Shown piece after piece: positions 4,003-44,378 of a stretch of 64,000 nucleotides of DNA. How positions within the stretch are numbered: the first letter of the stretch is position 1; each line of letters begins with the position of its first letter. The notes beneath the pieces were generated by a model. That model did not search any database. It saw only the letters and a program-made list of their open reading frames with translations, and was not told where the DNA came from. The position numbers and the translations under genes were made by a program. The stretch is from an uncultured Alphaproteobacteria bacterium (GTDB taxonomy: Bacteria; Pseudomonadota; Alphaproteobacteria; Rs-D84): assembly GCA_946623825.1 (NCBI GenBank), contig CAMORN010000002.1, positions 20,237-84,236 on the forward strand, written 5' to 3'.

Positions 4003-4017
4003 TTTTTACACCTTTTA

Positions 4018-4971
4018 TTAAAAACCACTGTTTTTCAACCAACGAATATCACCATCAGTAAATGCACGGATATCGTCCAGACCATATTTTACCATTGCCA
4101 ATCTGGCCCAACCAAAACCGAATGCAAAACCCTGATATTCATTTGGGTCTATGTTGCAATTTTTCAAAACATTTGGGTGAACCATACCGCCACATAATAA
4201 TTCCATCCATTTATCCCCGAATTTCATATCTATTTCAATAGATGGTTCTGTAAATGGGAAATAAGAAGGGCGAATACGCAATTCTACATTGTCTTTTTCA
4301 AAAAACTTTGAAGCAAATGTTCGCATAGTTGCCAACATATCAGACAGATTTATTTTCTTTTCCACTTTATCAACACACAAACCTTCTATTTGACCGAACA
4401 TAGCAGAATGTGTTGCATCTAATTCTTTGCGATAACATTGACCAACCGTAAACATTTTAATTGGGGCACCCAATTTTTCCATTGCACGAATTTGAACAGC
4501 ACTGGTTTGTGTACGCATTACATTGCCATTTTCCAAAAAGAATGTATCCTGCATATCACGGGCAGGGTGATAATCAGGTGTATTTAATGCGGTAAAATTA
4601 TGCCAATCATCTTCAATTTCTGGGCCATCCATAAATGTATATCCCAAAGATTCAAAAATACTAACTACTTCCTTGAAACTCTGGGTCAAAGGATGAATTG
4701 TTCCACGATTTTCAGGTTCACAATCTAAACTGACATCAACAAATTCTGTTGCCAATTTTGCATTTAACGCAGCATTTTCAAGTTCAATTTGTTTATCTTT
4801 GAACAATTGACGCAATTCAGCATTTTCAGTATTTACAATTGCCCTTTCTTCGTTGGATAAATTGGCCATATTTTTCAATTTAGCCGTCATAGTTCCGTTT
4901 TTACCGAAAGTCGCAGTGTACAATTCCTGTAATTCTTCAAGTGATGATATACTTTTAATTTTATCTTTCAT
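4018..4971 (-). CDS. pheS: Phenylalanine--tRNA ligase alpha subunit
   Basis: 317 aa with class II aaRS motifs (FPFTEPS, GFAFGFGWARLAM). Confidence 0.95.
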   Translation of the reverse strand: MKDKIKSISSLEELQELYTATFGKNGTMTAKLKNMANLSNEERAIVNTENAELRQLFKDKQIELENAALNAKLATEFVDVSLDCEPENRGTIHPLTQSFKEVVSIFESLGYTFMDGPEIEDDWHNFTALNTPDYHPARDMQDTFFLENGNVMRTQTSAVQIRAMEKLGAPIKMFTVGQCYRKELDATHSAMFGQIEGLCVDKVEKKINLSDMLATMRTFASKFFEKDNVELRIRPSYFPFTEPSIEIDMKFGDKWMELLCGGMVHPNVLKNCNIDPNEYQGFAFGFGWARLAMVKYGLDDIRAFTDGDIRWLKNSGF

Positions 4972-4989
4972 AATTTCCCCGCTTAAATA

Positions 4990-5017
4990 AATAAGACCGT
5001 ATTGCTACGGCCTTATT
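4990..5017 (-). promoter_or_regulatory. Stem-loop between rplT and pheS; possible terminator or attenuator
   Basis: AATAAGACCGTA/TACGGCCTTATT 12-bp stem with one mismatch and a TTGC loop. On the minus strand it is followed by a U-rich tract, then the pheS RBS AAGCGGGG. Confidence 0.4.
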
Positions 5018-5046
5018 ATGACAAAACAAATCATTGCCGTATAGCA

Positions 5047-5415
5047 TTATTTTGCAGATTCAGCAATAAATCGTTTAGCTGTTTCAACCAATGTGTCGAA
5101 GTTTTTATCAGCATCATATGCCATTTGGGCCAAAACTTTGCGGTCCAATGAGATACCTGCTTTCTTCAAACCATTCATAAATTGGCTGTAAGTCAAACCG
5201 TTAGCACGAACAGCAGCATTAATACGAACAATCCACAAAGAACGAAAATCACGTTTCTTTTGACGACGATCGCGATATGCATATTGTCCTGCTTTTTCAG
5301 TTTTTTCACGTGCAGCACGATAAGTTGAATGATGACGGGCCAAATAACCCTTGGCACGATCAAGTATTTTCTTATGTTTTTGTTTAACGGTAGTTCCGCG
5401 TTTTACTCTTGCCAT
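5047..5415 (-). CDS. rplT: 50S ribosomal protein L20
   Basis: [24 protein letters not shown]... is the canonical bL20 N-terminus. Confidence 0.95.
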
Positions 5416-13906: not shown

Positions 13907-14986
13907 TTATACATTAAACAAGAAATGACATATATCACCTTCTTGCATGATATATTCTTTACCAACTAATCTCATTTTACCCGCTTCTTTTACTGCGACT
14001 TCGCCACCATATTGAATATAATCGGCAGGTGATATAATTTCAGCACGAATAAATCCGCGTTCAAAATCACTGTGAATTTTACCAGCCGCCTGTGGTGCAG
14101 TCATACCTTTTGTTATAGTCCAAGCGTGTGCTTCTTTTGGACCAACGGTATAAAATGTTTGTAAACCTAATGTGTCATAACCAGTGTGAATAACCTGTTC
14201 AAGACCAGATTGTGATAAACCTAATTCATCAAGAAACATTTTTCTTTCTTCTGTATCAACAATTTGTGCAATTTCCATTTCTATTTTTGAAGAAATAATT
14301 AACACAGGTGAAACAGATGAATATTTTTCAACAACCATATCTGAAAATTTATTTCCTTTACTTGCAGCCGATTCTTCAACATTACATACATAAATAACCG
14401 GTTTTTTTGTTAATAAATTAAATGGTGTTGCGTCAACATCTTGTAATCTTGCAGGTATAGATTTTTCAAGATTTGATTTAATATTTTTTGCGTCTTCTAA
14501 TAATTTTGCAGCATTTTTATCAAGTCCATGAACCTTTTTTTCAAGTTTTTTAATTTGATTATCCAAACTTTCAATATCAGCCAACATTAATTCCGTTTCA
14601 ATTGTTTCAATATCAGCCAATGGGTCTATCTTTCCATTTACATGAACAATATCATCATTTTCAAAACATCTGACCACATGAATAATTGCATCAGTTTCAA
14701 GAATATTTGATAAAAATTTATTTCCAAGTCCTTCTCCACTGGATGCGCCCTTAACCAGACCGGCAATATCAACAATTTCAAGTTGTGTTGGTATTATACG
14801 TTCTGCCCCAGCAACCTTGGCCAGATTATGCAGTGTTGCATCAGGAACAACAACACGCCCAGTATTAGGTTCTATCGTACAAAATGGATAATTTTGTGCG
14901 TCCGCAGCAGCACTTTGAGTCAAAGCATTAAATAATGTAGATTTTCCAACATTTGGTAAACCAACAATACCACAATTAAATCCCAT
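13907..14986 (-). CDS. ychF: Ribosome-binding ATPase YchF
   Basis: MGFNCGIVGLPNVGKSTLFNALT P-loop and a C-terminal TGS domain; 359 aa. Confidence 0.93.
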   Translation of the reverse strand: MGFNCGIVGLPNVGKSTLFNALTQSAAADAQNYPFCTIEPNTGRVVVPDATLHNLAKVAGAERIIPTQLEIVDIAGLVKGASSGEGLGNKFLSNILETDAIIHVVRCFENDDIVHVNGKIDPLADIETIETELMLADIESLDNQIKKLEKKVHGLDKNAAKLLEDAKNIKSNLEKSIPARLQDVDATPFNLLTKKPVIYVCNVEESAASKGNKFSDMVVEKYSSVSPVLIISSKIEMEIAQIVDTEERKMFLDELGLSQSGLEQVIHTGYDTLGLQTFYTVGPKEAHAWTITKGMTAPQAAGKIHSDFERGFIRAEIISPADYIQYGGEVAVKEAGKMRLVGKEYIMQEGDICHFLFNV

Positions 14987-15005
14987 ATCTTTTCACCAAT
15001 TAAAG

Positions 15006-15752
15006 TTGTATTTTGTTAATATTTTTTATATTATATTGATATATAATAATTCGGTTATAAATATGTCATACCTTTGGCAAGAATTCAATATAAAAACATT
15101 TCCGGCGGAAACTTTAGTTTTCCGTGATGGTTTATTTTGTGAAGAATTATCAGATTATAAATCTGCAACATATTCACAAAATCAAATAGATATAAATAAA
15201 AAATCAGATTTACCAATTCATATTATCTATGTCGGTAATATAGAAAATGAAAATATATTAAAAATTAATATAAAAGCCGGTGATTGTACTGTTTTTATGA
15301 CAACCAGAATAAAAAATGAAAAATCTGCCAATTTAGATATTTATGTTAAAAATACCGGCAAAAACAGTATTTTTAATGGAAAAATTGTCGCTGAAAACCA
15401 TAATTTATTAAAAATAGACACATATGGTGAACATTTATCACAAAATACCGGTATTTTTATAAAAACTCATGTTCTGGCGTATAAAAATTCAGAAACAGAA
15501 TTAAATGGATACGCAATCATAGAAAAAAATATGCAAGATTGTGAAAGTGATGTTTCTTTTTCTGTGATGGCAGATGAAAGTGCCAAAATAAAATTAAAAC
15601 CGGTTCAAAATATAAAATCTGTACCAATTGCCGCATCACACAGTGCTTCTTTATATAAACCAAACGATTTTCAGATAAATTATCTTAAATCATCTGGTCT
15701 GGGTGAACAAGAAGTTAAAAATATCTTGGCTGAAGCATTTCTTTTATTATAA
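15006..15752 (+). CDS. SufD/SufB-family (UPF0051) domain protein, short orphan form
   Basis: The C-terminal ...KPVQNIKSVPIAASHSASLYKPNDFQINYLKSSGLGEQEVKNILAEAFL matches the conserved SufB/SufD C-terminal signature (A.HGAtvGqidEeQLFYL.SRGi.eeeA..LL..gF). It is only 248 aa, and no sufB/sufC are adjacent. Confidence 0.5.
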   Translation: MYFVNIFYIILIYNNSVINMSYLWQEFNIKTFPAETLVFRDGLFCEELSDYKSATYSQNQIDINKKSDLPIHIIYVGNIENENILKINIKAGDCTVFMTTRIKNEKSANLDIYVKNTGKNSIFNGKIVAENHNLLKIDTYGEHLSQNTGIFIKTHVLAYKNSETELNGYAIIEKNMQDCESDVSFSVMADESAKIKLKPVQNIKSVPIAASHSASLYKPNDFQINYLKSSGLGEQEVKNILAEAFLLL

Positions 15753-15778
15753 AAAAAATACCCGCGATAAATCGGGTA
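15751..15778 (-). terminator. Rho-independent terminator of rpmJ
   Basis: TACCCG-CGATAAAT-CGGGTA hairpin. On the minus strand it is followed by a run of eight Ts. Confidence 0.5.
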
Positions 15779-15804
15779 TAAAAAACATATCCAATTGGAT
15801 TATA

Positions 15805-15939
15805 TTATTTTTTCTTGAATCCCTGTTTTGCCTTTAATTTAGGATTAGAAGGGTCAATCAAGATAACTTGTTTTCCACGACGGATTTGTTTAACATTTCC
15901 ACGTTTTTTCCAAGCTTTAAGAGAACTTAAAAATTTCAT
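15805..15939 (-). CDS. rpmJ: 50S ribosomal protein L36 (bL36, Cys-less alphaproteobacterial type)
   Basis: A 44-aa ORF absent from the 60-aa ORF track: MKFLSSLKAWKKRGNVKQIRRGKQVILIDPSNPKLKAKQGFKKK. It matches the bL36 pattern MKVxSSLKxxKxRxxxCxIVRRxGRxYVINxxNPRFKARQG. The 82-aa ORF at 15815-16063 (+) is its antisense shadow. Confidence 0.75.
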   Translation of the reverse strand: MKFLSSLKAWKKRGNVKQIRRGKQVILIDPSNPKLKAKQGFKKK

Positions 15940-16200
15940 ATTTAATCCTTTTTACTGGGCAATTATAAACCAGATTTCTAAAAAATCAAATATTTATTAT
16001 AAATTATTGTTGTTTTTGTTTAGGCTGTTTATTTTATTAAAAACTTTTTTCAACTTTTTATAAACAGTTTTTCAACAAAAAAATCAAGGTTTTCTGCTGT
16101 TTTTATAAAAATAAGTGTAAAAAAATCAAAAATATCAACAAGTTGAAAAATATAGACTTTTTAATAAATTTAACAAAATTATAGATTTTTACTTTTATAC

Positions 16201-16229
16201 TTGTTGAAAAAAGTTGAAATTGTTATAAT
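16201..16229 (+). promoter_or_regulatory. Sigma-70-like promoter for virB3-virB4
   Basis: -35 TTGTTG (16201-06), 17-bp spacer, -10 TATAAT (16224-29). RBS GGAGAGG (16244-50) sits 5 nt before the TTG start at 16256. Upstream are repeated TTGTTGAAAAA / CAACAAGTTG inverted-repeat motifs (16068, 16137, 16199). Confidence 0.45.
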
Positions 16230-16255
16230 TACAACATAAGACTGGAGAGGGAATT

Positions 16256-16552
16256 TTGAAACAACGGGTTTTAAAGGCTTTGGCAAATCCACCACGCATA
16301 TTTTATGTGGCTTATAATCTTGCTATGCTGAATTTCTTGTTCTGGTTTATGATATTTGTTGTAACAATGGTTGTTTTTTTGGTTGTGACTAAAAATATTC
16401 CAATGTTGGCACCGCTGATATTTCTTGGGGTATTGTTTATATCACACAGTATTTTGGGAATTTATTCAAAAAAAGAACCACAACTGGCACAAATGATAAT
16501 GTCTGGTTTTAAAATTTTTAAAAGCAGAATACCGGAAAAATTGGTAGTATAA
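16256..16552 (+). CDS. virB3: Type IV secretion system protein VirB3
   Basis: 98-aa protein with two hydrophobic helices, immediately upstream of and coupled to virB4. Size and topology fit VirB3. Confidence 0.6.
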   Translation: MKQRVLKALANPPRIFYVAYNLAMLNFLFWFMIFVVTMVVFLVVTKNIPMLAPLIFLGVLFISHSILGIYSKKEPQLAQMIMSGFKIFKSRIPEKLVV

Positions 16553-16554
16553 AA

Positions 16555-18969
16555 ATGGAATATTTATTTAATTATTTTGCAGGAAATTCAAATTCAATGA
16601 CATTGACATTGGTTATTATTGCGATGTCTGTGTTGTTGGTATTTATTGTTTTGTTGGCTTATATACCGACTTTAACAAAAAGAATTTTACCTGAATTTGG
16701 TTATGCTAGATATTCTGATTATTTACCATTCAAGGGTGTTTATAAAGATGATATTATATCTTTAAATGATGGTTCTTTGGCACGCGCATATAAAATAAAT
16801 GGTGTTCAAACCAGTATAATGGACGATGAAAACCGTGAAAAATTATTAGATTTACGTGCACAATTATTCAATCAAATTCAAGATCCGTCTGTTCATATTC
16901 GTTTTTATACAATTCGTGATAAAGTTGATGAAAAAACAAATTATGAATTTCATCAAAAAACACTGCAAAAAATTTATGATAAATGGAATAACCAAGGATT
17001 ACAGATATTTAATAATTCTTATTATGTTGTTATATCTGTAAATGGTGCGAATAATTATGATAAATTATTGCATTATTCTAATTTTATAGAATCTGTATTA
17101 TCTGTATATAAACCAGTATTATTAAAACACAACAGTTTTGATAACATAGCAACATTATTTGGTCGTATATTATCACCAATAACAAAACCTGTTATTAAAA
17201 AATGTGATAATGATATTTCAGAACTTGTTGCTGTTGATAATGTTTATTTTGGTAAAAATGGAATCATAGAATATTCAAGTGGTGATAAATCTTATTTTGC
17301 ATCTTTGATTTCATTTAAATCAGCACCTGATTTTATGGATGAAGAATTTTTTAATTCTGTATCAACAATACAATGTGAAATGATTTGTATGAACGCATTT
17401 CATGTTTTAAAAGCAAGTGATATTGATTCTATTATAAGACAACATAAATCAACAATCACAGACGGCAGCGAAGATTCCACCATTGAACAAATAGAACAGG
17501 CACAATCTTCTATGGATGAAAATATAACTGGTGCACAAACATTGGTTGATTATTATCCATTATTTATATTATTTGGTTATAATAAAGATGAACTTGAAAA
17601 AAATGTTTCAGAATTCAAGAAAATAGCTGCATCTTTTGGTGTTGCGCCAGTTGTTGAAAATTTTGCAACCAAGGCTTCTTTCTTTTCTCAGATACCTGGT
17701 TTTGATATATTCCCACGCAGTTTCAAGATGTTGTCAAAAACCGCTGCGGTCAGTATACCTTTGTCATCAATGCCACATGGGGTCGCAAACAGTGACTGGG
17801 GTAATGGTCCGTTAGTTATATTCCCAACTGCTCAGGGAACACCATATCAATTTCAATTTCATGTTTCAGATAAACCGGCTGCTGTGGGACATACATTAAC
17901 AATTGGTCCAACTGGTGGTGGTAAAACAACATTGTTCTCGTTTCTTATTGCTCAATCTTTGAGACACCAAAAGTTAAAAGCTTTCTTCTTTGACAGAAAC
18001 AAGGGTGCAGAAATATTTACATTGGCTGTTGATGGTAAATATATAACCATGAATGGTAAAGAAAAAGATGCAAAACAAGATGTATTTTTAACACATTTAA
18101 ATCCATTAAAAATGCCGGATACTGCGGCAAATCGCGCATTTTTAAGACGTTGGTTTGCAATGATTACTGGTCAAAGTGATGTTGTTTCAAGTGATGAAAT
18201 TGCGCGTGCTGTATCTGTGAATTTTGATTATTTGAAAGACGAAGACAGATTATTGAAAAATCTGTATGAAAGTTGTTTTTCAAGTGAAGGTACAATGCGT
18301 GGTGAATTAAAGAAATGGGTTGATCCATTACAATATGGTGATATTTTCAATGAAACCGAAGATACACTTGATTTAAACGCCCGTTTAACAACATTTGATT
18401 TTACAGATATTTTGCAAGATGAAGTTTTAGCACCAGCAGTTATATCTTATATCTTACACAGAATAAATAATACAACTGTATCTGGTGGAAATCCTTCTTT
18501 GATTATGATTGACGAAACCGCACCTATGCTTGAAAACAAAATGTTCCGTGATAATTTCATAGCGGGCCTGCAAGAAGGTCGTAAAAATCGTCAAGCATAC
18601 ATGGTTGCGTTCCAACGCGCGAATGTTCTTGATAAACTTGGTATTGGTGATGTTGTTCGTGGTCAGGCACAAACTGTGTTATTTTTCCGTAATCCTGCGG
18701 CTGATTTAAGTGATTATGAAAAATGGAATTTAAATCCACTTGAAATGGCTTTTATTCAGGGTAAAGCATATCCAAATTTAAAACGCGCAGTATTATTATC
18801 ACGTCCAGTAAACGGGGAATCTGTAATTTTAAATACCGAATTGGGTGGTTTGGGTAATATGTTGCGTTTGTTTGAATCGGGTCGTTCTTCTGTTTTATTG
18901 GCTGAAGAATTATACAGAAATTATGGAAATAATTTTGTTGAAGAATATCTGAAAAAACAAACAATGTAA
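16555..18969 (+). CDS. virB4: Type IV secretion system ATPase VirB4
   Basis: 804 aa with N-terminal TM region, Walker A GPTGGGKTT, and a CagE/TrbE/VirB4 family C-terminal ATPase domain. Confidence 0.9.
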   Translation: MEYLFNYFAGNSNSMTLTLVIIAMSVLLVFIVLLAYIPTLTKRILPEFGYARYSDYLPFKGVYKDDIISLNDGSLARAYKINGVQTSIMDDENREKLLDLRAQLFNQIQDPSVHIRFYTIRDKVDEKTNYEFHQKTLQKIYDKWNNQGLQIFNNSYYVVISVNGANNYDKLLHYSNFIESVLSVYKPVLLKHNSFDNIATLFGRILSPITKPVIKKCDNDISELVAVDNVYFGKNGIIEYSSGDKSYFASLISFKSAPDFMDEEFFNSVSTIQCEMICMNAFHVLKASDIDSIIRQHKSTITDGSEDSTIEQIEQAQSSMDENITGAQTLVDYYPLFILFGYNKDELEKNVSEFKKIAASFGVAPVVENFATKASFFSQIPGFDIFPRSFKMLSKTAAVSIPLSSMPHGVANSDWGNGPLVIFPTAQGTPYQFQFHVSDKPAAVGHTLTIGPTGGGKTTLFSFLIAQSLRHQKLKAFFFDRNKGAEIFTLAVDGKYITMNGKEKDAKQDVFLTHLNPLKMPDTAANRAFLRRWFAMITGQSDVVSSDEIARAVSVNFDYLKDEDRLLKNLYESCFSSEGTMRGELKKWVDPLQYGDIFNETEDTLDLNARLTTFDFTDILQDEVLAPAVISYILHRINNTTVSGGNPSLIMIDETAPMLENKMFRDNFIAGLQEGRKNRQAYMVAFQRANVLDKLGIGDVVRGQAQTVLFFRNPAADLSDYEKWNLNPLEMAFIQGKAYPNLKRAVLLSRPVNGESVILNTELGGLGNMLRLFESGRSSVLLAEELYRNYGNNFVEEYLKKQTM

Positions 18970-27110: not shown

Positions 27111-27172
27111 AATACAATTTTGCCTTTATTTTATTTTATCTTTTGTGTTATAATACTTACACAGAAGAGAGA

Positions 27173-28423
27173 ATGATTAAGCAAATTATAACAGTTCATC
27201 ATAAAAAATTTGCGACAGGTCTATTTTGGCAACCTGTCAGTGTTGGTAATACAGCCTTTAATTATGCGAGACAACTGGCAAAAAATACAAAATATACACT
27301 GTTCACAGAATATAAATCTATGGTTGGTTTAACCAATGCAAGAAACGGTGCACATTTTTCGATGCCAAGTGCAGCTGCAGAAATTGTTGAACATTTTGCA
27401 GATTTAATTTCTTTCTTGGGTGTATTTCAGGCGGATAATGGTTTTTATTTGGTTGCGGTGCGTAATGGAATTATTATTCGTGATATTTTGATAGAATCTG
27501 AAACAAATGCCCGTGAAATTTATACTGAATTGTCAAATATACCTGATTGGGGTGCTTTGTTTGCGCCTGCGTCTTGGGGAATGCCTCGTTCTCAGGAAAA
27601 ATTTTTATCAGACATTATTCAAAATAACAATGTTGCGAGATTACGCAATATCAGTATCGTAAAATCTTTATTACCATCTATCTTTTTCATTGCGATTTTC
27701 GTGGTGGCATTCGTTTCGTTTTTATATTCACCAATGGGTAAAAGTATTATGCCACGCAAACGGGTAAATATAGATCCTGAATTAGCAGCAGAATACAAAC
27801 GCCAAATTGAATTAAAAAACAAAGAATTAGATGAACAATTCAATATTGTTAAGAAAGAAGTTGAACCATTAAATCGTCCATACGAACATTTACCAGATGT
27901 CATGGAACGCGCAAATTTGTGCTACAAGGCGATTGCTTTTGTTATGCAACCAGTTTCTGGTTGGAATCAGACATATACAAAATGTGATGAAAAATATGTA
28001 ACTGCTACATTTAAACGCGATTTTGGAACATTAAATGATTTTTATGATATTGGTTCTGAATTATTCCCAGGCGCGGTTGTTCAACAATTGTCTGAAAACG
28101 AAATATTGGTTCGTGTTATGTTGCCTGAATTAAAAACAGTTTCTTCTTTAGATGAACGCGATCAGGTCAGTGCTATGCGCGACATTACAACCAATTTCCA
28201 ACAAATAAACACTAAATTGCACATAAATGGTGTTTCGGATACTGTATCAAATGGGGAAGAAACCGAAAAATTAAATGTTATAGAGGTTTCTGCATCATCA
28301 AAAATGATACCGACTGAATTTATGAATGTGTTTAATGATTTTGGTGGTGTTTATATGACATCTGTAAATTGGAACGCAAACACAAGAACATGGAATTACG
28401 AAGTAATTGTTTATACAAAATAA
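27173..28423 (+). CDS. Bitopic inner-membrane protein; candidate type IVb pilus accessory protein (R64 PilO / BfpC / GspL-like)
   Basis: About 190-aa cytoplasmic N-domain, a single TM (LLPSIFFIAIFVVAFVSFLY), and an approximately 200-aa periplasmic C-domain. Size (416 aa) and position (immediately before a PilP-like protein, the ATPase and the platform) match R64 pilO-pilP-pilQ-pilR. A -10 TATAAT lies at 27149-54 and the RBS GAAGAGAGA precedes ATG 27173. Confidence 0.35.
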   Translation: MIKQIITVHHKKFATGLFWQPVSVGNTAFNYARQLAKNTKYTLFTEYKSMVGLTNARNGAHFSMPSAAAEIVEHFADLISFLGVFQADNGFYLVAVRNGIIIRDILIESETNAREIYTELSNIPDWGALFAPASWGMPRSQEKFLSDIIQNNNVARLRNISIVKSLLPSIFFIAIFVVAFVSFLYSPMGKSIMPRKRVNIDPELAAEYKRQIELKNKELDEQFNIVKKEVEPLNRPYEHLPDVMERANLCYKAIAFVMQPVSGWNQTYTKCDEKYVTATFKRDFGTLNDFYDIGSELFPGAVVQQLSENEILVRVMLPELKTVSSLDERDQVSAMRDITTNFQQINTKLHINGVSDTVSNGEETEKLNVIEVSASSKMIPTEFMNVFNDFGGVYMTSVNWNANTRTWNYEVIVYTK

Positions 28424-28439
28424 AAAAAGGAAAAATAAG

Positions 28440-29087
28440 ATGATTAATAAAATTCAGAAAATATTGTTATCAGTGTTGATTATATTTGGTTTTTCTGTCC
28501 CATCTTTTTCAGAAGAATTTATCGAAGAAGAAATTATCACAGAAGAAAATGCAGACCAAATATCTGCTGATGCGTTAAATAATTATGAAGTGAACGGTTC
28601 TTTGTTTGAAAGAATAACAACATTGGAACAAGAAAAAGTTGTTATGCAACTTGAAAAAGAAAGGGCACAGCTTGATTTAGAATTGGAAAGATTAAATGCT
28701 GAAAAAATAAAAATTCAAATGGAATTGGATACTTTGTCTGGGCGTGCAGAACAACAACAGCAAGAATTGGAAGCAACCAAGGCACAATTGGAAGCGCAAA
28801 CTGAAAAATTAAAACGTCAACTGGAAGAAGTAGAAGAAGAAAAACCTGTTGAAAGACCAACAAAAAAAGTTGTAGAAGGTGGTTTATCAAATCAATATAA
28901 ATTGGTTAATGTTATTGGTATTGGTAATCAATTACAGGCAACACTTGAAGAAGTTGCGACTGGTCAAAATAAACGCGTAAGTGTTGGTAAACAAATTGGT
29001 GGTTATATTGTAAAAAGCATTTCTTTAAATGACGGTATTATTTTTGAAAAAGACGGTCAGGAAGAAAACATAAATATTGGAAAATAA
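28440..29087 (+). CDS. PilP/GspC-like periplasmic protein (N-terminal anchor, coiled coil, C-terminal beta domain)
   Basis: N-terminal hydrophobic helix, acidic stretch, and a long coiled coil (LEKERAQLDLELERLNAEKIKIQMELD...). The C-terminal approximately 70 aa (YKLVNVIGIGNQLQATLEEVATGQNKRVSVGKQIGGYIVKSISLNDGIIFEKDG) resembles PilP/GspC homology-region domains. Confidence 0.35.
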   Translation: MINKIQKILLSVLIIFGFSVPSFSEEFIEEEIITEENADQISADALNNYEVNGSLFERITTLEQEKVVMQLEKERAQLDLELERLNAEKIKIQMELDTLSGRAEQQQQELEATKAQLEAQTEKLKRQLEEVEEEKPVERPTKKVVEGGLSNQYKLVNVIGIGNQLQATLEEVATGQNKRVSVGKQIGGYIVKSISLNDGIIFEKDGQEENINIGK

Positions 29088-29088
29088 T

Positions 29089-30717
29089 ATGCCAAACAAA
29101 GATGATAAATTTTTAACAGATGTTTCATCAAAACCGTCAATTCCGGCGGGACTTGAAAACGCAAACAGTAAAGATATTATTGATTATTTGTTTTCTAATC
29201 AAAACAGATTATTAACATCTTCCGTGGGTGAATTGGCTTTGCCGAAAGACACACAAAGTTTGATTGCATATTTTTCAAGTGGCGAAATTATTATTTCCAG
29301 AACACACAGATACGATGGTCGTGTTATTGCGTTTATAGATTTATTGCGTCAGAAAAATAAATTGATGAAACAACCTTTTTATTCTGATTTAGGTTTAATA
29401 TCAAACATTTATAAATATAACGACGAAAGGGTTGGCGGAATACATGCGCGTCCTGACTATGATAACCAGATGCAGAAAGATTTTGTTGATATTATTGCAC
29501 GTGCTGCATCGCAAAAGGTTTCTGATATTCACATAGAGGTCGCAGACCAAACAACAATTTATTTCCGTATAGATGGCAGTATGCAACCGGTTCTTGAATA
29601 CAATTCACAATGGGGTGAATCTTTCGTTCGTGCGGCGTTTGCATCGGCTGATATTTCTAATTCGAGTTATGCACAAAACGAATATCAAACCGCCCAGAAA
29701 GATGGACGAACACCATTGCGTGGAACAAAAGATTTATATTTGCCAAATGGTGTGTTGGGTATTCGTATGCAATTTAATCCGATTGCGTTTGGTTCGCAAT
29801 ATGTGGTTATGCGTTTGTTATATGATAACCCAAGCGAAGGTATAAAAACCGAACAAGAATTTAATGAATATGAACAAAAATTATTGATGCGTTTGCGTTC
29901 TGCACCAACTGGATTGGTTGTTGTTGCGGGTCCTACATCTTCTGGTAAATCTACGACATTGGTTCGCAATATGGCGTTGATGTTGAAAGAAAAAAGATAT
30001 GAAATAAATCTTATTACTGTGGAAGATCCTGCGGAACAAAAGATTTTTGGCGCACATCAAATGCCGGTTGTTAACACAACGAACGAAGAACAACGCGAAG
30101 AAAAATTTACAGAAGCCCTTGCGGCTGCTTTGCGAAGCGACCCTGATACATTAATGGTCGGTGAAATCAGAACATTATCTGCGGCGCAATTGACGGTCAA
30201 GGGCGCATTGTCTGGTCATAATGTGTGGACAACATTGCACGCTAATTCTGCGATGGGCGCGTTGACCCGTTTGTTGGATATGGGCGTGGAAGCTTTCAAA
30301 TTAAAAGATGAAACAATGATGCGTGGTTTGGTTTCTATGCGTTTATTTAAAAAATTGTGTCCACATTGTCGTGAAAGATTACTGGATAAAAGAAATCATC
30401 CGTCATATAACCGTGTTCGTGAAACATTGGGTGATTTAGGGTTGGCGCAAACATATGTTCGTGGTGTTGGTTGCGAATATTGTAATGGCACCGGAACAAT
30501 TGGTCGTGTCAAGGCGGGTGAAATTATTATCACAAACAGTGAATTTTTATCGCTTGCGCTGGCGGGGGAAACAGAAAGCGCAGTGAAATATTGGCTTGAA
30601 AAAATGAACGGACGAACACTGAAAGAATCTGCAATTGAATTGATGTTGCGTGGTATTATCGGTGTTGATGAATTGGAAGACAGGGTTGGTTTATTAGACA
30701 GACCATGGGTATATTAA
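29089..30717 (+). CDS. GspE/PilB/TcpT-family secretion ATPase
   Basis: Walker A VVAGPTSSGKSTTL, Asp box/Walker B, His box (MVGEIRTLSAAQL...GHNVWTTLHANSA), and a C-terminal tetracysteine motif CPHC...CEYCNGTG as in GspE/PilB. ATG 29089 directly follows the upstream stop. Confidence 0.85.
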   Translation: MPNKDDKFLTDVSSKPSIPAGLENANSKDIIDYLFSNQNRLLTSSVGELALPKDTQSLIAYFSSGEIIISRTHRYDGRVIAFIDLLRQKNKLMKQPFYSDLGLISNIYKYNDERVGGIHARPDYDNQMQKDFVDIIARAASQKVSDIHIEVADQTTIYFRIDGSMQPVLEYNSQWGESFVRAAFASADISNSSYAQNEYQTAQKDGRTPLRGTKDLYLPNGVLGIRMQFNPIAFGSQYVVMRLLYDNPSEGIKTEQEFNEYEQKLLMRLRSAPTGLVVVAGPTSSGKSTTLVRNMALMLKEKRYEINLITVEDPAEQKIFGAHQMPVVNTTNEEQREEKFTEALAAALRSDPDTLMVGEIRTLSAAQLTVKGALSGHNVWTTLHANSAMGALTRLLDMGVEAFKLKDETMMRGLVSMRLFKKLCPHCRERLLDKRNHPSYNRVRETLGDLGLAQTYVRGVGCEYCNGTGTIGRVKAGEIIITNSEFLSLALAGETESAVKYWLEKMNGRTLKESAIELMLRGIIGVDELEDRVGLLDRPWVY

Positions 30718-30720
30718 GAT

Positions 30721-31791
30721 ATGAATAAATTAGATTTGCTGTATGCAAAACTGGTTTTTAGAACAAATACTGATAAACGTATGGCGATTTCAAGAAAAAT
30801 CGCATCTCTGCTTCGTAATAATTTTACATTGATGGACGCGTTGCACCGTATTGAAATGATAGAATCATTTGACGGACGAAAACCAAATGAACCATTTGCA
30901 ATCGCAATGCGTGAAATTCAACAGAACCTTGAAAAAGGTATGACTTTCAGCGAGGCCACACGTGGTTGGGTTCCAAATGAAGAAACATTGCTTTTAATGT
31001 CTGGTAATGTGTCCAGTTTATTGGTTTCGCTTGAAAATGTATCGCGTGTTGTTGGTGGTATCAGAAGAATTAAACGCGCAATGTGGTCTGCGTTGGCATA
31101 TCCATTATTTTTGTTTTTATTGACGATTGGTATAATTATTATGGTTGGAATATATCTTGTTCCACCATTGGCACAAGCGGCGGGCAGCGATATTATATGG
31201 CGTGGCACGGCGGCGTCCCTGATATGGGTATCAGATTTTGCAAATAAATATTGGTATGTTTTTGCAGCCGGATTGGTTGGGGTGATATCTGTTGTATGGT
31301 TATCTTTGCCAATATGGACGGGAAAATTAAGAACCATGTTTGATAAATTACCACCATGGAATATTTATAAATTACAAACATCTGTTGGTTGGTTAATGTC
31401 ATTGGCTGCAATGGTGTCTGCGGGTGTGTCTGTGCCGGACGCGTTGCGTTTATTGATGGATTCATCAAACAGATATTTATCAAATATATTGGAAGAAACC
31501 CTGCATTATATTGCAAACGGTGAAAATTTGGGTTCTGCGCTGGCGTTGACTGGGAAAGATTTCCCAAATGGTGAAATCGTTGGCGATTTGATGATATATT
31601 CAGATATGAATGATTTCGCACAAAATCTGGACGATATCGCAAATGATTATATGGAAGAATCAGTTCGCCGTATGGAATCTATATCAAGTGTTTTAAACAG
31701 CATTGGTATTATATTAGTATCAATTATTATTGGGTGGATAGTTTTGGGCACTTTCCAGATGCAGGAACAAATCACCGCCGTTTTGATGTAA
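30721..31791 (+). CDS. GspF/PilC/TcpE-family inner-membrane platform protein
   Basis: 356-aa polytopic protein directly after the ATPase, with T2SS-F-like helical cytoplasmic segments alternating with TM helices. Size matches the type IVb platform proteins TcpE, BfpE and R64 PilR (about 340-365 aa). Confidence 0.55.
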   Translation: MNKLDLLYAKLVFRTNTDKRMAISRKIASLLRNNFTLMDALHRIEMIESFDGRKPNEPFAIAMREIQQNLEKGMTFSEATRGWVPNEETLLLMSGNVSSLLVSLENVSRVVGGIRRIKRAMWSALAYPLFLFLLTIGIIIMVGIYLVPPLAQAAGSDIIWRGTAASLIWVSDFANKYWYVFAAGLVGVISVVWLSLPIWTGKLRTMFDKLPPWNIYKLQTSVGWLMSLAAMVSAGVSVPDALRLLMDSSNRYLSNILEETLHYIANGENLGSALALTGKDFPNGEIVGDLMIYSDMNDFAQNLDDIANDYMEESVRRMESISSVLNSIGIILVSIIIGWIVLGTFQMQEQITAVLM

Positions 31792-32044
31792 ATAAAATTT
31801 ACTTGTAAAAATTTTTCTAAAATTGCTATGATAAAAATGTCGATAAAATTTTTTATCGGTGGGGTGTAGTAACCCGTTTAAAACAGCGTCGTAAAGCAGA
31901 CGAAAAATGCCTCCAACTTGAATAATGGTTGGAGGGTCGTGATATACATAAATAAACGGCACAATTTCTGTTTTAATTGTTACTAACCTCCAACCACCAA
32001 ATGTTTATGGTGGTTTTCTTGTTAAAAAAAGAAAGGGAGTAACC

Positions 32045-33268
32045 ATGTCACAAAAAATCTTTTTAACATCCGCGCTTGCGATGGGCGTGATAGCACCGGC
32101 ATTTGCGGAACCATCACATACGGGAACATTCCCAGCCGACGGCTATATGGAAGAAGATTACACATATACCAACGCGGCAACTGCAGACAACATGGACAGC
32201 GTATATGAAGGAACCGTAGATGCAGTCGCGGAATACGAAGATGTATTATATCAAATCGTCGCGGGACAATATTTACCGGCGGGCGCAGAATCACCAATAG
32301 ATTGTGATCAATCTGGTTATTTCTGTGCTGGTGTGCAAAATGGTGTTTATTATGACGCAAATAATAATCAGGGACTTACATCATGTTCGGATGCGACAAA
32401 CGGCGCATATACATTATCCGCCGGAACTGGTGACAGCGTAAATTCATGTTATCGTACATGTACAAATTCGGATGTTGCACATTCAACGGGAACAATGAAC
32501 GGTGGCTATTATTATGGTAATAACAACCAATGTGGCGCAACATCTTGCGTTAACGGATGGCATTTGAAAACCAGCATGAGCGGCGGCGAATTAGTAACCG
32601 CAATTGGTACAGGCGCCGGTGAAAACAGTGCTCATATTAAGGCAGACGGTACATTTGGTGAACAAAACTTTGATGGTCAGGGAGAAAAGGGGCAATCATA
32701 TTATGGCTTAACCGACAATAACACATGGGCGGTAGATTACGGCACCAACGGAATGTTGGTTGGTCAGGCTCGTTGTTCTACACAAGCAGGTGATAATAAT
32801 GGTGCTACATGGACAAACCCAACAATAACATCAAGTTTAACAGATGAAACCGGTCAAGCGGGGGCACAATATTGTTATTGTAATGTGACGGGATATAAAG
32901 GTACGGACGGCACCATGCAGAGCTTGTCCGCCCCTTGGGTGTTCTACGAAGGCTTCAGCGGTGGCGAGTCGGCTTGCGCATACGGCTGCGCTAACGACTG
33001 TGCGAGCATCTTGCGTATCACGGACTCGTCCTTCCTCGCGTTCCGTGCTGCGTTGTTGGGATCCGTTCAATCAAGTCCAGCGATGTGTGAGGCAAATGTT
33101 ATCAACATTAATTGGTCGAATGCAGATGCAGCTGATGTTATTGCAAACAATGCGGGTACCGCCACATACGGAAGTGATGTTCGTACCCCTGTTAAGGCAC
33201 AGACCATTAAGGGTAAAACATTCCGTGGTTGGCGTTTCAGCAAACCAGAACAAACCAATTTGCCATAA
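32045..33268 (+). CDS. Secreted Cys/Gly/Thr/Asn-rich protein of unknown function, compositionally foreign
   Basis: Sec signal peptide MSQKIFLTSALAMGVIAPAFA-EP; 407 aa with more than 20 Cys and almost no Lys/Ile, unlike the rest of the proteome. Its DNA is 45-60% GC against a 30-33% background, with GC-rich third codon positions. RBS AAGGGAG. It lies just downstream of the secretion ATPase and platform genes. Confidence 0.5.
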   Translation: MSQKIFLTSALAMGVIAPAFAEPSHTGTFPADGYMEEDYTYTNAATADNMDSVYEGTVDAVAEYEDVLYQIVAGQYLPAGAESPIDCDQSGYFCAGVQNGVYYDANNNQGLTSCSDATNGAYTLSAGTGDSVNSCYRTCTNSDVAHSTGTMNGGYYYGNNNQCGATSCVNGWHLKTSMSGGELVTAIGTGAGENSAHIKADGTFGEQNFDGQGEKGQSYYGLTDNNTWAVDYGTNGMLVGQARCSTQAGDNNGATWTNPTITSSLTDETGQAGAQYCYCNVTGYKGTDGTMQSLSAPWVFYEGFSGGESACAYGCANDCASILRITDSSFLAFRAALLGSVQSSPAMCEANVININWSNADAADVIANNAGTATYGSDVRTPVKAQTIKGKTFRGWRFSKPEQTNLP

Positions 33269-33314
33269 TCGGCAAAAACCAATTGGTGTGTTTTTTGTTT
33301 CGCACACCAATATA

Positions 33315-33377
33315 AAAAAGGGTTCCTTTCCCTTTTTTGTTCCTGAAAAAAATACCGGTGTTTACCGGTATTTTTAT
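33315..33377. terminator. Two tandem terminator hairpins between convergent genes
   Basis: AAAAAGGG-TTCCTTT-CCCTTTTTT (33315-33338) and AATACCGG-TGTTTA-CCGGTATTTTT (33346-33377, ACCGGT family). Confidence 0.55.
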
Positions 33378-33388
33378 TATCTTTTTAT

Positions 33389-33958
33389 TTAAGCCATAAA
33401 TGGCAGGTTTTCAAGCGTTCCTTCTGTAACCCTTACATTTACGTCTATCAGCATGAAAACTGAATCTGGGGACGTTTTTGTGTTTTCTGGGAATATATCT
33501 GTTGATAATAAATGGCTGGTGTTGACGGTCAATTTTGTAACCAAATGGTCGTCGTCTAACAGAGTATAAATTGGTCCAACATCATGAGGGGTATTTTGAC
33601 CGATTTCATGTTCGTTTTGTGGACAACGCAACCCGTCCAATATTGTTTTGACACGGTTATCTATGTCTGAACGTGGAACACCAACAATTTCAGGGTGCAT
33701 CAACAAAATATCTAATTCTGCAATCATTTTCAGGTTTGATGTAATGATTGGGTTAAAATCTATACCGCCGATATGACGGGTTATAATCGGGCTTTTTGTA
33801 GCGTCAGGCATCATAAATTTAGACAAATTGTTCCATGGTTGGAAATTCAGCAATTTCTTTAATTGTGGGTGAAATTGCATGCGGATATCCGCAATATGTT
33901 GGGCGCGTTTTTTCGGATTTGTTAAAATATCGCCATAGTAAAGTAATTTAAATTTCAT
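33389..33958 (-). CDS. RusA-like Holliday-junction resolvase superfamily protein with N-terminal extension
   Basis: PRSDIDNRVKTILDGL matches the RusA catalytic block RRRDLDNLQKAAFDAL (DxDNxxKxxxDaL). The downstream LLDDDHLVTKLTV matches the RusA WLDDAQVVDYRVV block. 189 aa. Confidence 0.45.
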   Translation of the reverse strand: MKFKLLYYGDILTNPKKRAQHIADIRMQFHPQLKKLLNFQPWNNLSKFMMPDATKSPIITRHIGGIDFNPIITSNLKMIAELDILLMHPEIVGVPRSDIDNRVKTILDGLRCPQNEHEIGQNTPHDVGPIYTLLDDDHLVTKLTVNTSHLLSTDIFPENTKTSPDSVFMLIDVNVRVTEGTLENLPFMA

Positions 33959-34062
33959 ACATTAAACCTTTTGGTTAAAAATAGTGATTTTTTATACCTT
34001 TTCACTTGATAATTATATCATAAATTGCTATGTTTTACATAGCAAAAAGAAAGGAATTTTAA

Positions 34063-36462
<2,400 letters not shown>

Positions 36463-40490: not shown

Positions 40491-43400
40491 CTATTTTGCA
40501 TTGTTTGCTTGTTCTATAGTTTCTTGGATAATTGCAGAAGCAATTTGTTTTTTCTGTTCTTCTGAATATTCGTGATTCGCCATTATTTCTGCCAGACGTT
40601 CAGATGCTTTTTTCCAAACTTTTTTAGCAGAATCTGTTTTTGCCTTGGCAAGTTTCTTCTTGGCAAGTTTAGCAGCATAATCAGCAGATGTTACATCTTC
40701 TGCTGTTGTGTCGCCGAATCCTTTGAAAAATGCAGATATTGCTTGGCCAAAGCGTCTTGCTTTTGTTTTTTGACCATCTGCTTCTATGCCTGCAACTTTT
40801 GTTTTGCCACGTGCAGTTGTTGCAGCTACATTTGCGGCACCTTGTGCTTCTAATATTCTTAATTTATTTTCTAATTCAGCCAATTTCAAACGGGCGTCCA
40901 TTGCGCTTTTACCACCCATGCTTTTGAATTTTTCAACTTCTTTTTCTAATAAATCAAGTTCTGCCAAACGACGGTCTGTGCTGTGTTGTTGGCCCATATC
41001 TTCCATTTTGAATTGTGCGCGCAATTCAATAATCTTTTTACCGATTTTGCCCATGGCTTTTTCGTCCAGATGAGCAATTGCAACACCATCTTTCAAAGAT
41101 ACATCTGCAAGATCTTCAATGCTTATGTCTTTGTATTCTTTGTTTAAAGCCTTTATGCCACGTGCGCGTTCAATGGCGCGTTTGTTTTTTGCTTTTACGT
41201 CTTCTATTTTCATTTGGTTTACTCCTTGTTGTATTTGTAGGTTAATATTATGAATTCCTTTTATAGTTTTTTGTGTACCGTGATACACGGATTGCATTAT
41301 TTTATAAGTTATATCTTTACATCTGCCGAAAAATCCGCGTTTTGCAGGTTTTTCTTCTGGTTCGTTTCCATCATTTGGTTTTGGTGGATTAACAATCACA
41401 GGTGTTTCTGGTTGTATATTTTCCGTTGGTGGCATTATAACAATACCGTCAGAAGGTCTGGCAACATTTCGTGGAATATCAGGTCTTTCATCAGTTTGTG
41501 TATTTTGGGTTCCGTCTATTTGATGATCAATTCTGTCGCCACGATCAGCCAATGCACCCGCGCGTTCACGCATACGGGTTAAATATTCATCAGGTACAAC
41601 ACGTGGTTCATATATTCCAAATGTTCCAATTCCAGCAGGGAAAGCCAATTCGTTTGGTGTAAATATACTGGTGGTTTCATTGGTTATGATTGGAATATCG
41701 TTAAATACCTGACCTGAATGTTCAACATATGTTGAATAAACATCATTTCCAGGAATCAAAACACCATTTGCATCGTATGTTGCGTTTGCTGGTAAATCAT
41801 AATTTACCGGTGCGTTTGGAATATATCCAACGGTGTTTATAGCAGAAATGTGTGGATTAAAATGTTCAAACGCTGCGAGTGCTTCTGGTGATAAATTTAT
41901 TTCAGAACCATTTATGGAACCACGTAACGCAGATAATGCATCTGAATCTAGGCCGATATTATGGAAATAACCATTCCCAAGATTATGGTCTGTTGCGTCA
42001 TGCCATGCTAATAAATAGCGAACTGCGTCATCATGGCTTAAACCTGCGTTCATTAAACCGCTAATTCTGGTGTCAAAAGATTGTTGTGTTTCCCAATTAT
42101 TATTCAACATCATTTCTTCGTGATGTTCAATAACACCATCATTATAAACGCGTTGTGTTGTTTCGGTTTGATTTATTGTTGTATGTTCTGTTTTGAATAA
42201 TGTTGAATCTGTGTTTTCGTTCACATAGTTTATAACACCATTCATGGCCCAACGACCAAACAAACCACCAGCGACCACAGAACCAGATACAGCCAAAGCG
42301 CCAGCCAATGCCTGACCACGGGTATAGCCAGAATTTATTGCGTCTTTATATGTCATAACACCAGATGATGTTCCGCCAACTGCCATTGCAGACAGGCCAA
42401 ACGCACCTGCTAATTCAGGGTTCCCTGTTGCCATACTGATTACAGCGGCAACACCCAAACCAGATGTTAAAGCCGGTCCCCAATTTCGTTTATCTGAAAA
42501 GAATTCTTTTATACCATGTGGTTTTCCTGCTTTCTTTTGTTCACGACGCCATTTAAATCCCTGAACAATCATATTGCCGATACCCAGTGTTGTTCCAATT
42601 GCGGCGCCTGCATATGCGATACCGGTTGCTTTTCCTATGAATGTAAGTCCAGCAGATACGGCGGTAGCAGTCAGGAAATTTTTCAAAGAACGACGAAAGA
42701 AACTGATTTTCTTTTTACGACCATCAGCACCGGTTTTTTCTGTTCTTGTTTTTGATAATTTATCAATATCATTAACAGCTTCAAAAGGACGCATAACAAT
42801 TTTTTTATCATTGCCGACATGTTCTGCCATCATTCCTGCAAAACCAGCAGCCTGATTAACCTGAGCGTCCAATGCGTCTTGATAACCTTCGTCTGTTATT
42901 TCTCCGCCATCTGTTTTAATAGAATCCCAAAATTCATCAACTTCCTGTTGGGTCAAAGGCTTGTGTTCTGCAACCCCAGAAACACTTTGGTCAGGCACAG
43001 ATATCTCCGCCATTTTCCATGGGATAGATTCTGATAATTCAGATTCAAGATTTATATCTTTAACTTCTGTTTCAAGGTCGCCCACATTTCGCATATTTAC
43101 ATCTGTTTTTGCCAATGATATTATGCGATTTAATCTGCCGTTCGGGTCCAATTTATACCCCGGTTTAAATTCAGATTGTGTTTTTCCGTTTTCATCTAAA
43201 AATTGAGGAATCGGTTTACCATTTTCGTCTAAAAACTTGTATTTAGATAATGTTGATAATATTTCATCGTTTATTTCAACATCTTTTAATGAATTTGCAA
43301 TTTCTTGCCAACGTTTATCCAGTTTTTCAGCATCTTCCGGTTTTAAATTTTTCAGATTCCACATATCTGAATACAAAGATACAATTTCTTCAAGACGAGC

Positions 43401-44228
43401 GAGAGATTCTGATATATTTTGTCTGACGGTTTCTTTGTATTTTTTTGTTGTATTATTGTCGGTTGTTTTTTCGCGGACATCTTTTTCGCGAATCTGACAC
43501 ATTTTGCGGTATCCAGCATAAACATCTGCAATATTTGATGGGTCAGAATAAAAATAATCAACTTTCTTTGCAAAATTATTTATCAGATAATCAATGCGTT
43601 TCGCCAATGTTAAAAATCTGTCTGCTGCATCTTTGTTGTTTTTGTCTTTCATATATTGTTCACGAGCAAACAGATACGCATCTGTTAAAATTTTTGGTGG
43701 AACCAATTCGAATAATTCATTGTTGCCAACAACTAAAGATATAAAATTATTTGCATATTGTTGACGTTGTGTTTCTGTCATATTTACAGAATTTATAAGT
43801 TCTGCGACCTGATTTGGAGTCAGATTTTTTTCGTCTGTATCAGACGGAATTAAACCCATGTCACGCAGAATACCCAAAGAAATTAAATCAAATTTAATCT
43901 GGTTTTGGTCCGATGTCAGCGAAAAAATTCTTTGATTATCAGCCGCGTTTTCTGCGTTTTCCAATGAATCAATAATTGATTGATATTTTGCCATTGCGCG
44001 TGCGCCAATTTCATTCAGGACATTATTTCCGTCTGCATCTTTTGTCATACAGCAAGTTTCTATGATTTTTTGCAATTCTGGCAACGCAGATTGTTCAATA
44101 TCAATTTTTTCATTAATAAAATTATCAAGTAATCTGTTAGCTATTTCGATAGATTCTTCGCGTGAATCTGGGGACGAATACATATCTAGAATTTCTTGTA
44201 ATCTAGATTTAGTATATACTAGTTGCAT
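40491..44228 (-). CDS. Large (about 1245 aa) hypothetical membrane protein with extended coiled-coil regions and a central Gly/Ala-rich multi-TM block
   Basis: Central segment ...TAVSAGLTFIGKATGIAYAGAAIGTTLGIGNMIVQG...LGVAAVISMATGNPELAGAFGLSAMAVGG...ALAGALAVSGSVVAGGLFG has 4-5 predicted TM helices. Long heptad-rich N- and C-terminal regions. The likely start is MQLVYTKS (ATG at 44228) with RBS AAAGGA; the ORF-track N-extension up to 44318 contains a TATAAT box. Confidence 0.5.
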   Translation of the reverse strand: MQLVYTKSRLQEILDMYSSPDSREESIEIANRLLDNFINEKIDIEQSALPELQKIIETCCMTKDADGNNVLNEIGARAMAKYQSIIDSLENAENAADNQRIFSLTSDQNQIKFDLISLGILRDMGLIPSDTDEKNLTPNQVAELINSVNMTETQRQQYANNFISLVVGNNELFELVPPKILTDAYLFAREQYMKDKNNKDAADRFLTLAKRIDYLINNFAKKVDYFYSDPSNIADVYAGYRKMCQIREKDVREKTTDNNTTKKYKETVRQNISESLARLEEIVSLYSDMWNLKNLKPEDAEKLDKRWQEIANSLKDVEINDEILSTLSKYKFLDENGKPIPQFLDENGKTQSEFKPGYKLDPNGRLNRIISLAKTDVNMRNVGDLETEVKDINLESELSESIPWKMAEISVPDQSVSGVAEHKPLTQQEVDEFWDSIKTDGGEITDEGYQDALDAQVNQAAGFAGMMAEHVGNDKKIVMRPFEAVNDIDKLSKTRTEKTGADGRKKKISFFRRSLKNFLTATAVSAGLTFIGKATGIAYAGAAIGTTLGIGNMIVQGFKWRREQKKAGKPHGIKEFFSDKRNWGPALTSGLGVAAVISMATGNPELAGAFGLSAMAVGGTSSGVMTYKDAINSGYTRGQALAGALAVSGSVVAGGLFGRWAMNGVINYVNENTDSTLFKTEHTTINQTETTQRVYNDGVIEHHEEMMLNNNWETQQSFDTRISGLMNAGLSHDDAVRYLLAWHDATDHNLGNGYFHNIGLDSDALSALRGSINGSEINLSPEALAAFEHFNPHISAINTVGYIPNAPVNYDLPANATYDANGVLIPGNDVYSTYVEHSGQVFNDIPIITNETTSIFTPNELAFPAGIGTFGIYEPRVVPDEYLTRMRERAGALADRGDRIDHQIDGTQNTQTDERPDIPRNVARPSDGIVIMPPTENIQPETPVIVNPPKPNDGNEPEEKPAKRGFFGRCKDITYKIMQSVYHGTQKTIKGIHNINLQIQQGVNQMKIEDVKAKNKRAIERARGIKALNKEYKDISIEDLADVSLKDGVAIAHLDEKAMGKIGKKIIELRAQFKMEDMGQQHSTDRRLAELDLLEKEVEKFKSMGGKSAMDARLKLAELENKLRILEAQGAANVAATTARGKTKVAGIEADGQKTKARRFGQAISAFFKGFGDTTAEDVTSADYAAKLAKKKLAKAKTDSAKKVWKKASERLAEIMANHEYSEEQKKQIASAIIQETIEQANNAK

Positions 44229-44378
44229 ATGTAAAAATCCTTTCTTTCGTTGACTCCGTTTGTGCTTCTTTTCTCTCCCCTTGCGATATATTATACACTT
44301 TTTTAGGTCTTTATTCAAGTATGTTGAAATACATAATATAGGTTTATATATAATTAAAAATCTGGTATAATACGCGGT

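Follow-up and report, generated by a model that had tools for sequence, protein, structure and literature searches.

The stretch of DNA analysed here (the window) comprises 64,000 nucleotides of contig CAMORN010000002.1 from an uncultured gut alphaproteobacterium of the lineage Rs-D84, and it carries at 32045–33268 a gene for a secreted, cysteine-rich protein with a short, conspicuously GC-rich segment. This segment, 32922–33067, is very probably the variable repeat (VR) of a target gene of a diversity-generating retroelement (DGR) and not foreign DNA. In a DGR, a non-coding template repeat (TR) is transcribed and then reverse-transcribed by a dedicated reverse transcriptase (RT), which puts random bases opposite template adenines, and the resulting cDNA replaces the VR of the target gene. 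The evidence comprises the codon pattern of the window gene, the TR/VR/RT cassettes of its relatives and, in the window's own lineage, the match between variable sites and template adenines. The features of the target gene are as follows.

32045–33268, + strand: the target gene, an open reading frame (ORF) for a secreted Cys-rich protein of 407 aa, member of a multi-copy family of Candidatus Enterousia-like Alphaproteobacteria.
32045–32107, + strand: probable Sec signal peptide MSQKIFLTSALAMGVIAPAFA, followed by EP; read from the sequence and from conservation in the family alignment, with a putative cleavage site.
32537–33079, + strand: domain bearing the variable patch (aa 165–345), modelled by AlphaFold2 as a beta-sheet core with a helical hairpin at its C-terminal end.
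32922–33067, + strand: the putative VR, a patch of high GC content at third codon positions (GC3) and low A; its bounds come from homology to the 145–156-nt TR/VR pairs of related loci.
32945–33034, + strand: variable core (codons 301–330), made up of NNC-type codons in alternation with scaffold codons that lack A (TGC, GCT, TGT, GCG, CGT, ACG, TCG).
33035–33052, + strand: invariant GC-rich 3' block CTCGCGTTCCGTGCTGCG, shared without change, even at synonymous sites, by many intact paralogues and the L054 template repeat.
33086–33244, + strand: conserved C-terminal module CEANVININW...GKTFRGWRF, resembling the InlB B-repeat (Flg_new), as judged from family alignment conservation and weak Flg_new matches.

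The original prediction, which had pointed to a GC-rich segment within the secreted-protein gene, is borne out on this point: the GC maximum of the whole window lies at 32851–33060 (0.576 in 210-nt windows; mean 0.335, sd 0.056). The GC contents it gave are roughly right, with 55.5% over its interval 32870–33080 and 62.1% over 32900–33060, against 45.0% and 44.1% in the flanking parts of the gene and 33.5% in the whole window; over 32922–33067 the GC content is 61.2% and the A content 10.9%. The effect is one of synonymous sites. GC3 over 32885–33064 reaches 0.73–0.77, while the values at first (~0.45) and second (~0.58) positions, GC1 and GC2, are flat; GC3 is 0.13–0.50 in the remainder of the target gene and 0.13–0.36 in the other 47 ORFs of the window. 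The top 49-codon stretch of the target gene has a GC3 of 0.796, compared with a mean of 0.229 for the windows of other genes (sd 0.075, max 0.551; z 7.6), the highest such value outside the target gene (0.55) being found at 30150–30300 in the T2SSE ORF 29077–30717. Among the third positions of the 50 patch codons there are 24 C, 13 G, 9 T and 4 A, so that 37 of the 50 codons end in G or C, where 12.0 would be expected for the same amino acids with the window's codon usage (z 8.8); third-position A falls to 0.08 from 0.32, and third-position T to 0.17 from 0.34. The strong preference for G/C-ending codons claimed earlier is therefore real, and amino-acid composition alone does not explain it. 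The pattern is readily seen in the codons themselves: TAC GAA GGC TTC AGC GGT GGC GAG TCG GCT TGC GCA TAC GGC TGC GCT AAC GAC TGT GCG AGC ATC TTG CGT ATC ACG GAC TCG TCC TTC CTC GCG TTC CGT GCT GCG.

The second GC peak of the window, 42220–42440 (~0.50), lies inside a minus-strand ORF of 1275 aa without a Pfam match (40491–44318). As a second VR this stretch was rejected, being Gly/Ala-rich and membrane-like with T-ending codons; its GC content, in contrast to that of the patch, follows from amino-acid composition. An assembly chimera is an unlikely source of the patch, because a protein identical to the window's is recorded from another assembly (P0262, P0011) and both the reading frame and the conserved flanks run uninterrupted through it.

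The gene belongs to a large family, of which 273 homologues were collected, all from uncultured gut and rumen Alphaproteobacteria, several per contig and with genome records that name Candidatus Enterousia or unclassified Alphaproteobacteria. The rumen sister genome RUG14070 holds about 16 copies dispersed around its chromosome. The window protein has no Pfam family match, and 13 of 34 family members match Flg_new weakly at the C-terminus, P0054 and P0065 carrying PF09479. These two proteins (P0054 has 702 aa) also carry two tandem modules, each with its own VR-like patch (SAPWVF...LAFRAA twice). Alignment of the family shows the protein to be hypervariable and least conserved in the GC-rich patch, which is flanked by the conserved motifs SPWVF and LAFRAAL and follows the pattern x-C-A-x-x-C-A-x-x-C-A.

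The compositional anomaly recurs in the relatives. Averaged over 45 genes of the family, GC3 is 0.63 within the patch and 0.37 outside it, with third-position A at 0.10 and 0.30, and the position of the spike is conserved in about 40 of the 45, in genomes of 33–47% GC. The homologue P0001, from a different genome, has a GC3 of 0.73–0.80 at the matching place, and the DNA alignment of its gene with the window gene places the differences at codon positions 1 and 2, third-position C being kept and the invariant codons containing no A. Some paralogues in these same genomes carry a decayed patch (L014, L017, L006, L025, L028 and L023), with GC3 of 0.24–0.45 and codons such as AAT, GAT, TAT, TGT and GCA; in L014, where the decayed copy occupies 10815–10968, the counterpart of the GC-rich 3' block is mutated as well. 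Such copies have the look of targets at which rewriting has ceased. Because the AT bias of these genomes is strong and other paralogues have decayed, intact VRs such as that of the window have probably been rewritten comparatively recently.

Direct traces of a retroelement were found in the relatives. When the fetched loci were searched with the patch by nhmmer, seven non-genic AAC-rich copies (L021, L054, L030, L027, L026, L029 and L048) came up besides homologous patches. Each of these TRs is followed within ~250 nt by a conserved ORF of 108 aa and then by an RT of ~342 aa, always in the order TR, ORF, RT. The RT matches Pfam RVT_1 (8e-15), carries the motifs IGNLTSQ and YCDDF and matches the phage RT family PHROG 1423 at 4e-99. 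Its best relative in the PDB is 8ub7_A (7e-55), which we take to be the Bordetella phage DGR's RT, the search tool's own label being merely "Reverse transcriptase"; RTs of group II introns or retrons follow at 2e-19 or weaker. An RT of the DGR clade thus stands beside the TR in these relatives. The best relative of the RT in IMG/VR is only 48% identical, and the cassettes appear to be cellular and not phage-borne.

In six TR/VR pairs of 145–156 nt, 99 differences fall on template adenines (A-to-N) and 7 elsewhere, and three of these 7 are one terminal base shared by three pairs (GGCTCC vs GGCGCC at the TR/VR ends). Together with metagenome loci fetched through the RT, the pairs number 15, with differences almost exclusively at adenines. 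At one locus (L116; 4385–4489, 5287–5417 and 10611–10739) a single TR accompanies two VRs, one upstream and one ~5 kb downstream, which differ from it at 14 adenines in the one case and at 15 adenines plus 2 other positions in the second. Differences at template adenines are the defining behaviour of DGRs (PMC5758913, PMC3240598), and in this case they were established on the family at large and not on the window's own copy.

The ORF of 108 aa lies between TR and RT in 30 loci (L021 13240–13566, L054 1039–1365 and 28 further), with a pI of 7.6–8.6. No relative of it was found in Pfam, PHROG, NCBIfam or the PDB sequences, and no Avd homologue was detected; the ORF is a candidate for a new DGR accessory protein. 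About a quarter of known DGRs are without avd (PMC5758913), which is therefore not strictly defining. Just 3' of the TRs there is a conserved motif, ACCTGTGGGACAAAGTGT (L021 13018–13035; also L026, L027, L029, L030 and L048), followed by a short inverted repeat, AAAGTGT..ACACTTT; the motif is probably part of the element's structured spacer RNA. As to the surroundings of the cassettes, in L021 the DGR is followed (14616–17911) by a terminase-like gene with a Terminase_6C match and by an ORF resembling a ParB-like methyltransferase, and a large ORF near the L054 cassette (3320–5359) resembles an anaerobic ribonucleotide reductase, the methyltransferase and reductase resemblances being readings of the sequence only. 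The L021 neighbourhood hints at a prophage or gene-transfer agent.

The templates offer a simple account of the composition of the patch. In this family they consist of AAC codons separated by A-free scaffold codons. Homing would turn AAC into NNC, with the amino acid randomised and the third-position C retained, and the scaffold codons, made of C, G and T only, would stay fixed (GCG, TGC, TCG, CGT, CTC, GCT). A GC3 near 0.8 and ~11% A with unchanged GC1 and GC2, in a genome of 33% GC, would result from just this combination. The NNC pattern, with variable positions 1–2 and an A-free scaffold, is present in the window itself. The invariant 3' block CTCGCGTTCCGTGCTGCG is likely to provide homing or priming homology, by analogy with the initiation of mutagenic homing (IMH) sequence of the Bordetella phage element. 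A downstream hairpin was also considered as target-recognition element, but the folds found are weak, non-conserved and inconsistent, at −0.2 to −7.6 kcal/mol.

Within the window's own lineage the same signature can be followed at short evolutionary distance. The RUG14070 locus L011 is the syntenic orthologue: its flanking DNA is 92–97% identical to the window's, the T2SSE, T2SSF, 189-aa ORF and gyrB proteins are 97.5–99.2% identical, and PilO 91.5%. Differences at codon positions 1, 2 and 3 were counted for four regions.

T2SSE: 10/4/101
T2SSF: 13/3/65
gyrB: 10/3/139
Variable core, codons 301–331: 12/15/7

Nearly all changes in the flanking genes thus fall on third positions, whereas the variable core has a large excess at positions 1 and 2; its third-position divergence (7/30) is near the ~0.18 per codon of the flanks, i.e., roughly neutral. 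Across 11 VRs of the window's lineage, 29 of the 31 positions with an A in the L021 template were highly variable, compared with 24 of the 95 that have another base there (p 7.5e-12). A second process is visible beside this one. The centre of the gene (32255–32725) is only 45–60% identical to the corresponding part of L011 (10200–10700), and in clusters of at least 90% identity the N- and C-terminal segments differ in a mosaic fashion while the patch is common to the members. This indicates, from sequence comparison, that the family also evolves by mosaic exchange between paralogues, besides the retroelement. The GC3 signal does not come from such exchange, since GC3 in the conserved ends that are exchanged is an ordinary 0.3–0.4.

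Several results weigh against the DGR interpretation of the window copy, or at least against its present activity. They should be read in the light of what was visible to the analysis, namely 170 fetched loci (genome, metagenome and viral) and, through the 64-kb window, about 7% of a genome that in Rs-D84/Enterousia is reported to be <1 Mb and to belong to organisms with a predicted partner-dependent lifestyle (PMC12306168). Searches of the window for a TR copy of the patch (exact and 3-mismatch, blastn at word size 7, nhmmer with a VR/TR profile) returned only the patch itself; a six-frame YxDD scan for an RT gave only a YMDD of penicillin-binding-protein type, and the TR-spacer motif had 0 matches there. 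No cognate TR was found among the 170 loci, the best candidate, the L021 TR, showing 14 non-A mismatches and a 3-nt indel, and the ~16 RUG14070 paralogues all lack an RT within 10 kb. A few of the differences between the VRs of the window and L011 fall where the template cannot have had an adenine, e.g., TCG vs TGG. Ongoing hypervariation was not seen in 10 clusters of at least 90% protein identity, whose members have identical VRs, and L001 and L002, from two samples, share the same VR; the patch is likewise unchanged between near-identical proteins of different assemblies. Finally, the VR domain has no match to the C-type lectin fold.

These points bear most directly on the possibility that the patch is a relic, written by a DGR in an ancestor, with no working cassette now and with diversity kept by recombination among paralogues. 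This alternative, which disputes current activity only, is a serious one, to which we would give somewhat less than an even chance. It gains from the lack of a TR or RT in the window and of an RT next to any RUG14070 paralogue, from the identity of VRs within clusters whose N- and C-terminal parts are mosaic, from the strong divergence of the gene centre between flanks of high identity, and from the decayed VRs present in the family. On the other hand, the window copy has kept a GC3 of ~0.8 where the other genes of its genome are at ~0.23, while paralogues in the sister genome have decayed, and the orthologue pair combines a large excess at positions 1–2 with a VR third-position divergence close to that of the flanks. 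With so small a part of the genome visible, the absence of a cassette is unproven. We put at about even the chances that this genome has, outside the window, a cognate TR and RT that are still acting on the window copy.

The remaining alternatives dispute the retroelement itself. GC-biased gene conversion among paralogues would account for the spike without any RT, and the many paralogues per genome, together with clear mosaicism between copies, would supply the opportunity; but the strongly conserved N- and C-terminal segments, which are those exchanged, have ordinary GC3, no segment diverges more between copies than the GC-rich patch, and both the NNC periodicity and the match between variable sites and template adenines are left unexplained. 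We regard this as improbable.

Still less likely, and very improbable indeed, is the source favoured by the original prediction, a GC-rich foreign donor whose DNA arrived by horizontal transfer or as a recombination patch. What survives of that idea is a separate origin of the patch by copying from a donor sequence; what falls is the foreign GC-rich genome and the one-off acquisition. A sharp local anomaly, the highest in the window, is what first suggests an import, but the shift concerns the third codon position only, where an island would be expected to move all three and to be specific to one genome, and orthologues and paralogues share it: the same spike stands at the same place in homologues from genomes that range from AT-rich to moderate GC. 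Its place is that of the family's hypervariable patch, the least conserved part of the protein and not a conserved import, and the relatives' loci pair this patch with an AAC-rich template and an RT within the same genomes, the differences being specific to adenine.

A second functional element overlapping the patch and constraining its synonymous sites, be it a structured RNA or a gene in another frame or on the antisense strand, is hardly credible: six other-frame ORFs of at least 20 aa (25–143 aa) do overlap the segment, the original prediction having noted such spurious ORFs but counted five, yet they are expected in any A/T-poor stretch, the downstream folds are weak and inconsistent, variation at positions 1–2 with position 3 kept fits the + frame only, and an Rfam search over 31000–34500 gave no match, only a sub-threshold chance match downstream of the gene.

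As a target of a DGR, the protein would be a surface or secreted ligand-binding protein with a diversified helical face exposed. The AlphaFold2 model of the domain (aa 165–345) has a pLDDT of 94.2 and a pTM of 0.88, and the patch falls in it on one strand plus two helices. One face of a predicted helix bears Cys311, Cys315 and Cys319 as an i, i+4 ladder, and the variable residues lie on the other face. The VR may therefore be carried by a helical hairpin, as modelled, and not by a C-type lectin fold, which nearly all DGR targets have (PMC8144416). Foldseek of the domain model against the PDB gave no significant relative (best E 0.14, TM <0.3); BFVD and a profile search of the PDB sequences gave no match, and no lectin-type Pfam was found in 34 family members.

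The genomic surroundings of the gene include two further features.

27143–31791, + strand: pilus or secretion genes directly 5' of the target (PAP_PilO, an unassigned ORF, T2SSE ATPase and T2SSF), by Pfam matches; context only.
33348–33375, + strand: terminator-like hairpin 3' of the gene, from a consensus scan only, with a 12-pair stem followed by a T run.

The arrangement of the pilus or secretion genes is conserved in L011 of RUG14070. Elsewhere the contexts of the paralogues are unrelated, e.g., beside YidC and VirB genes in L001.

Comparison with known systems places the Enterousia-type cassettes within the general DGR scheme while setting them apart in several details. As in the DGR of the Bordetella phage BPP-1 (mtd VR, TR, avd, brt), TR and VR differ specifically at adenines, the template is rich in AAC and yields NNC codons, and the VR has a GC-rich invariant 3' end. 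Unlike BPP-1, the related cassettes have the conserved 108-aa ORF between TR and RT and no detectable Avd homologue, they appear cellular where BPP-1 is phage-borne, and the RT is distant from its closest IMG/VR relative. The VR is internal here, ending 66 codons ahead of the stop, in a target domain without a C-type lectin match, and the window target is far from any cassette.

Reduced-genome CPR bacteria and DPANN archaea carry DGRs for hypervariable surface proteins, and the likeness lies in a host with a small genome and a predicted partner-dependent lifestyle that invests in such proteins. The lineage here is alphaproteobacterial, with the order TR, accessory ORF, RT and an unannotated target family. 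The DGRs of Treponema denticola (TvpA and six further targets) and Legionella (LdtA) are likewise cellular and diversify secreted or surface proteins, whereas their targets have VR domains of the C-type lectin type and their accessories are Avd or HRDC. One template can serve several targets, non-adjacent ones included (PMC5758913), and the single TR with two VRs in L116 and the dispersal of the family round the chromosome are similar in kind. The maximum number of DGR targets is quoted as seven (PMC5758913); the ~16 copies in RUG14070 exceed it, the servicing of all 16 by a cassette being unproven.

Bacteroides DGRs diversify type V pilus adhesins (bioRxiv 10.1101/2024.11.15.621889). They share the gut setting and adhesin-like targets, and the window gene follows PAP_PilO, T2SSE and T2SSF, but its N-terminus is of the Sec type and not of the pilin type, and the paralogues stand in other contexts. 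The thin-pilus operon of plasmid R64 ends with an adhesin varied by a shufflon. A pilus link of the window protein is, by analogy, only a thought, other paralogues being found in unrelated contexts.

The kind of system is known, as a DGR, and this target family is apparently undescribed in the literature searched; no paper linking DGRs with Enterousia or Rs-D84 was found in the searchable literature. It is a tentative suggestion, on balance doubtful, that the Enterousia-type DGR represents a distinct variant, with a Cys-laddered helical hairpin in place of a lectin, a 108-aa accessory unlike the Avd, HRDC and MutS-like ones, and one or a few cellular cassettes serving up to ~16 dispersed, recombining paralogues, the window copy included, in a sub-megabase genome.

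The analysis of this gene underscores that a sharp spike of GC3 with low A in a gene of an AT-rich genome can mark the VR of a DGR even though the retroelement is distant, and that it is not to be read as a sign of horizontal transfer. It also portrays a partner-dependent gut alphaproteobacterium with a genome reported to be <1 Mb that devotes many genes to one secreted family built for templated hypermutation of a binding face. Should both the helical scaffold, as modelled, and the unassigned accessory ORF be borne out, the range of targets and cofactors of DGRs would become wider.

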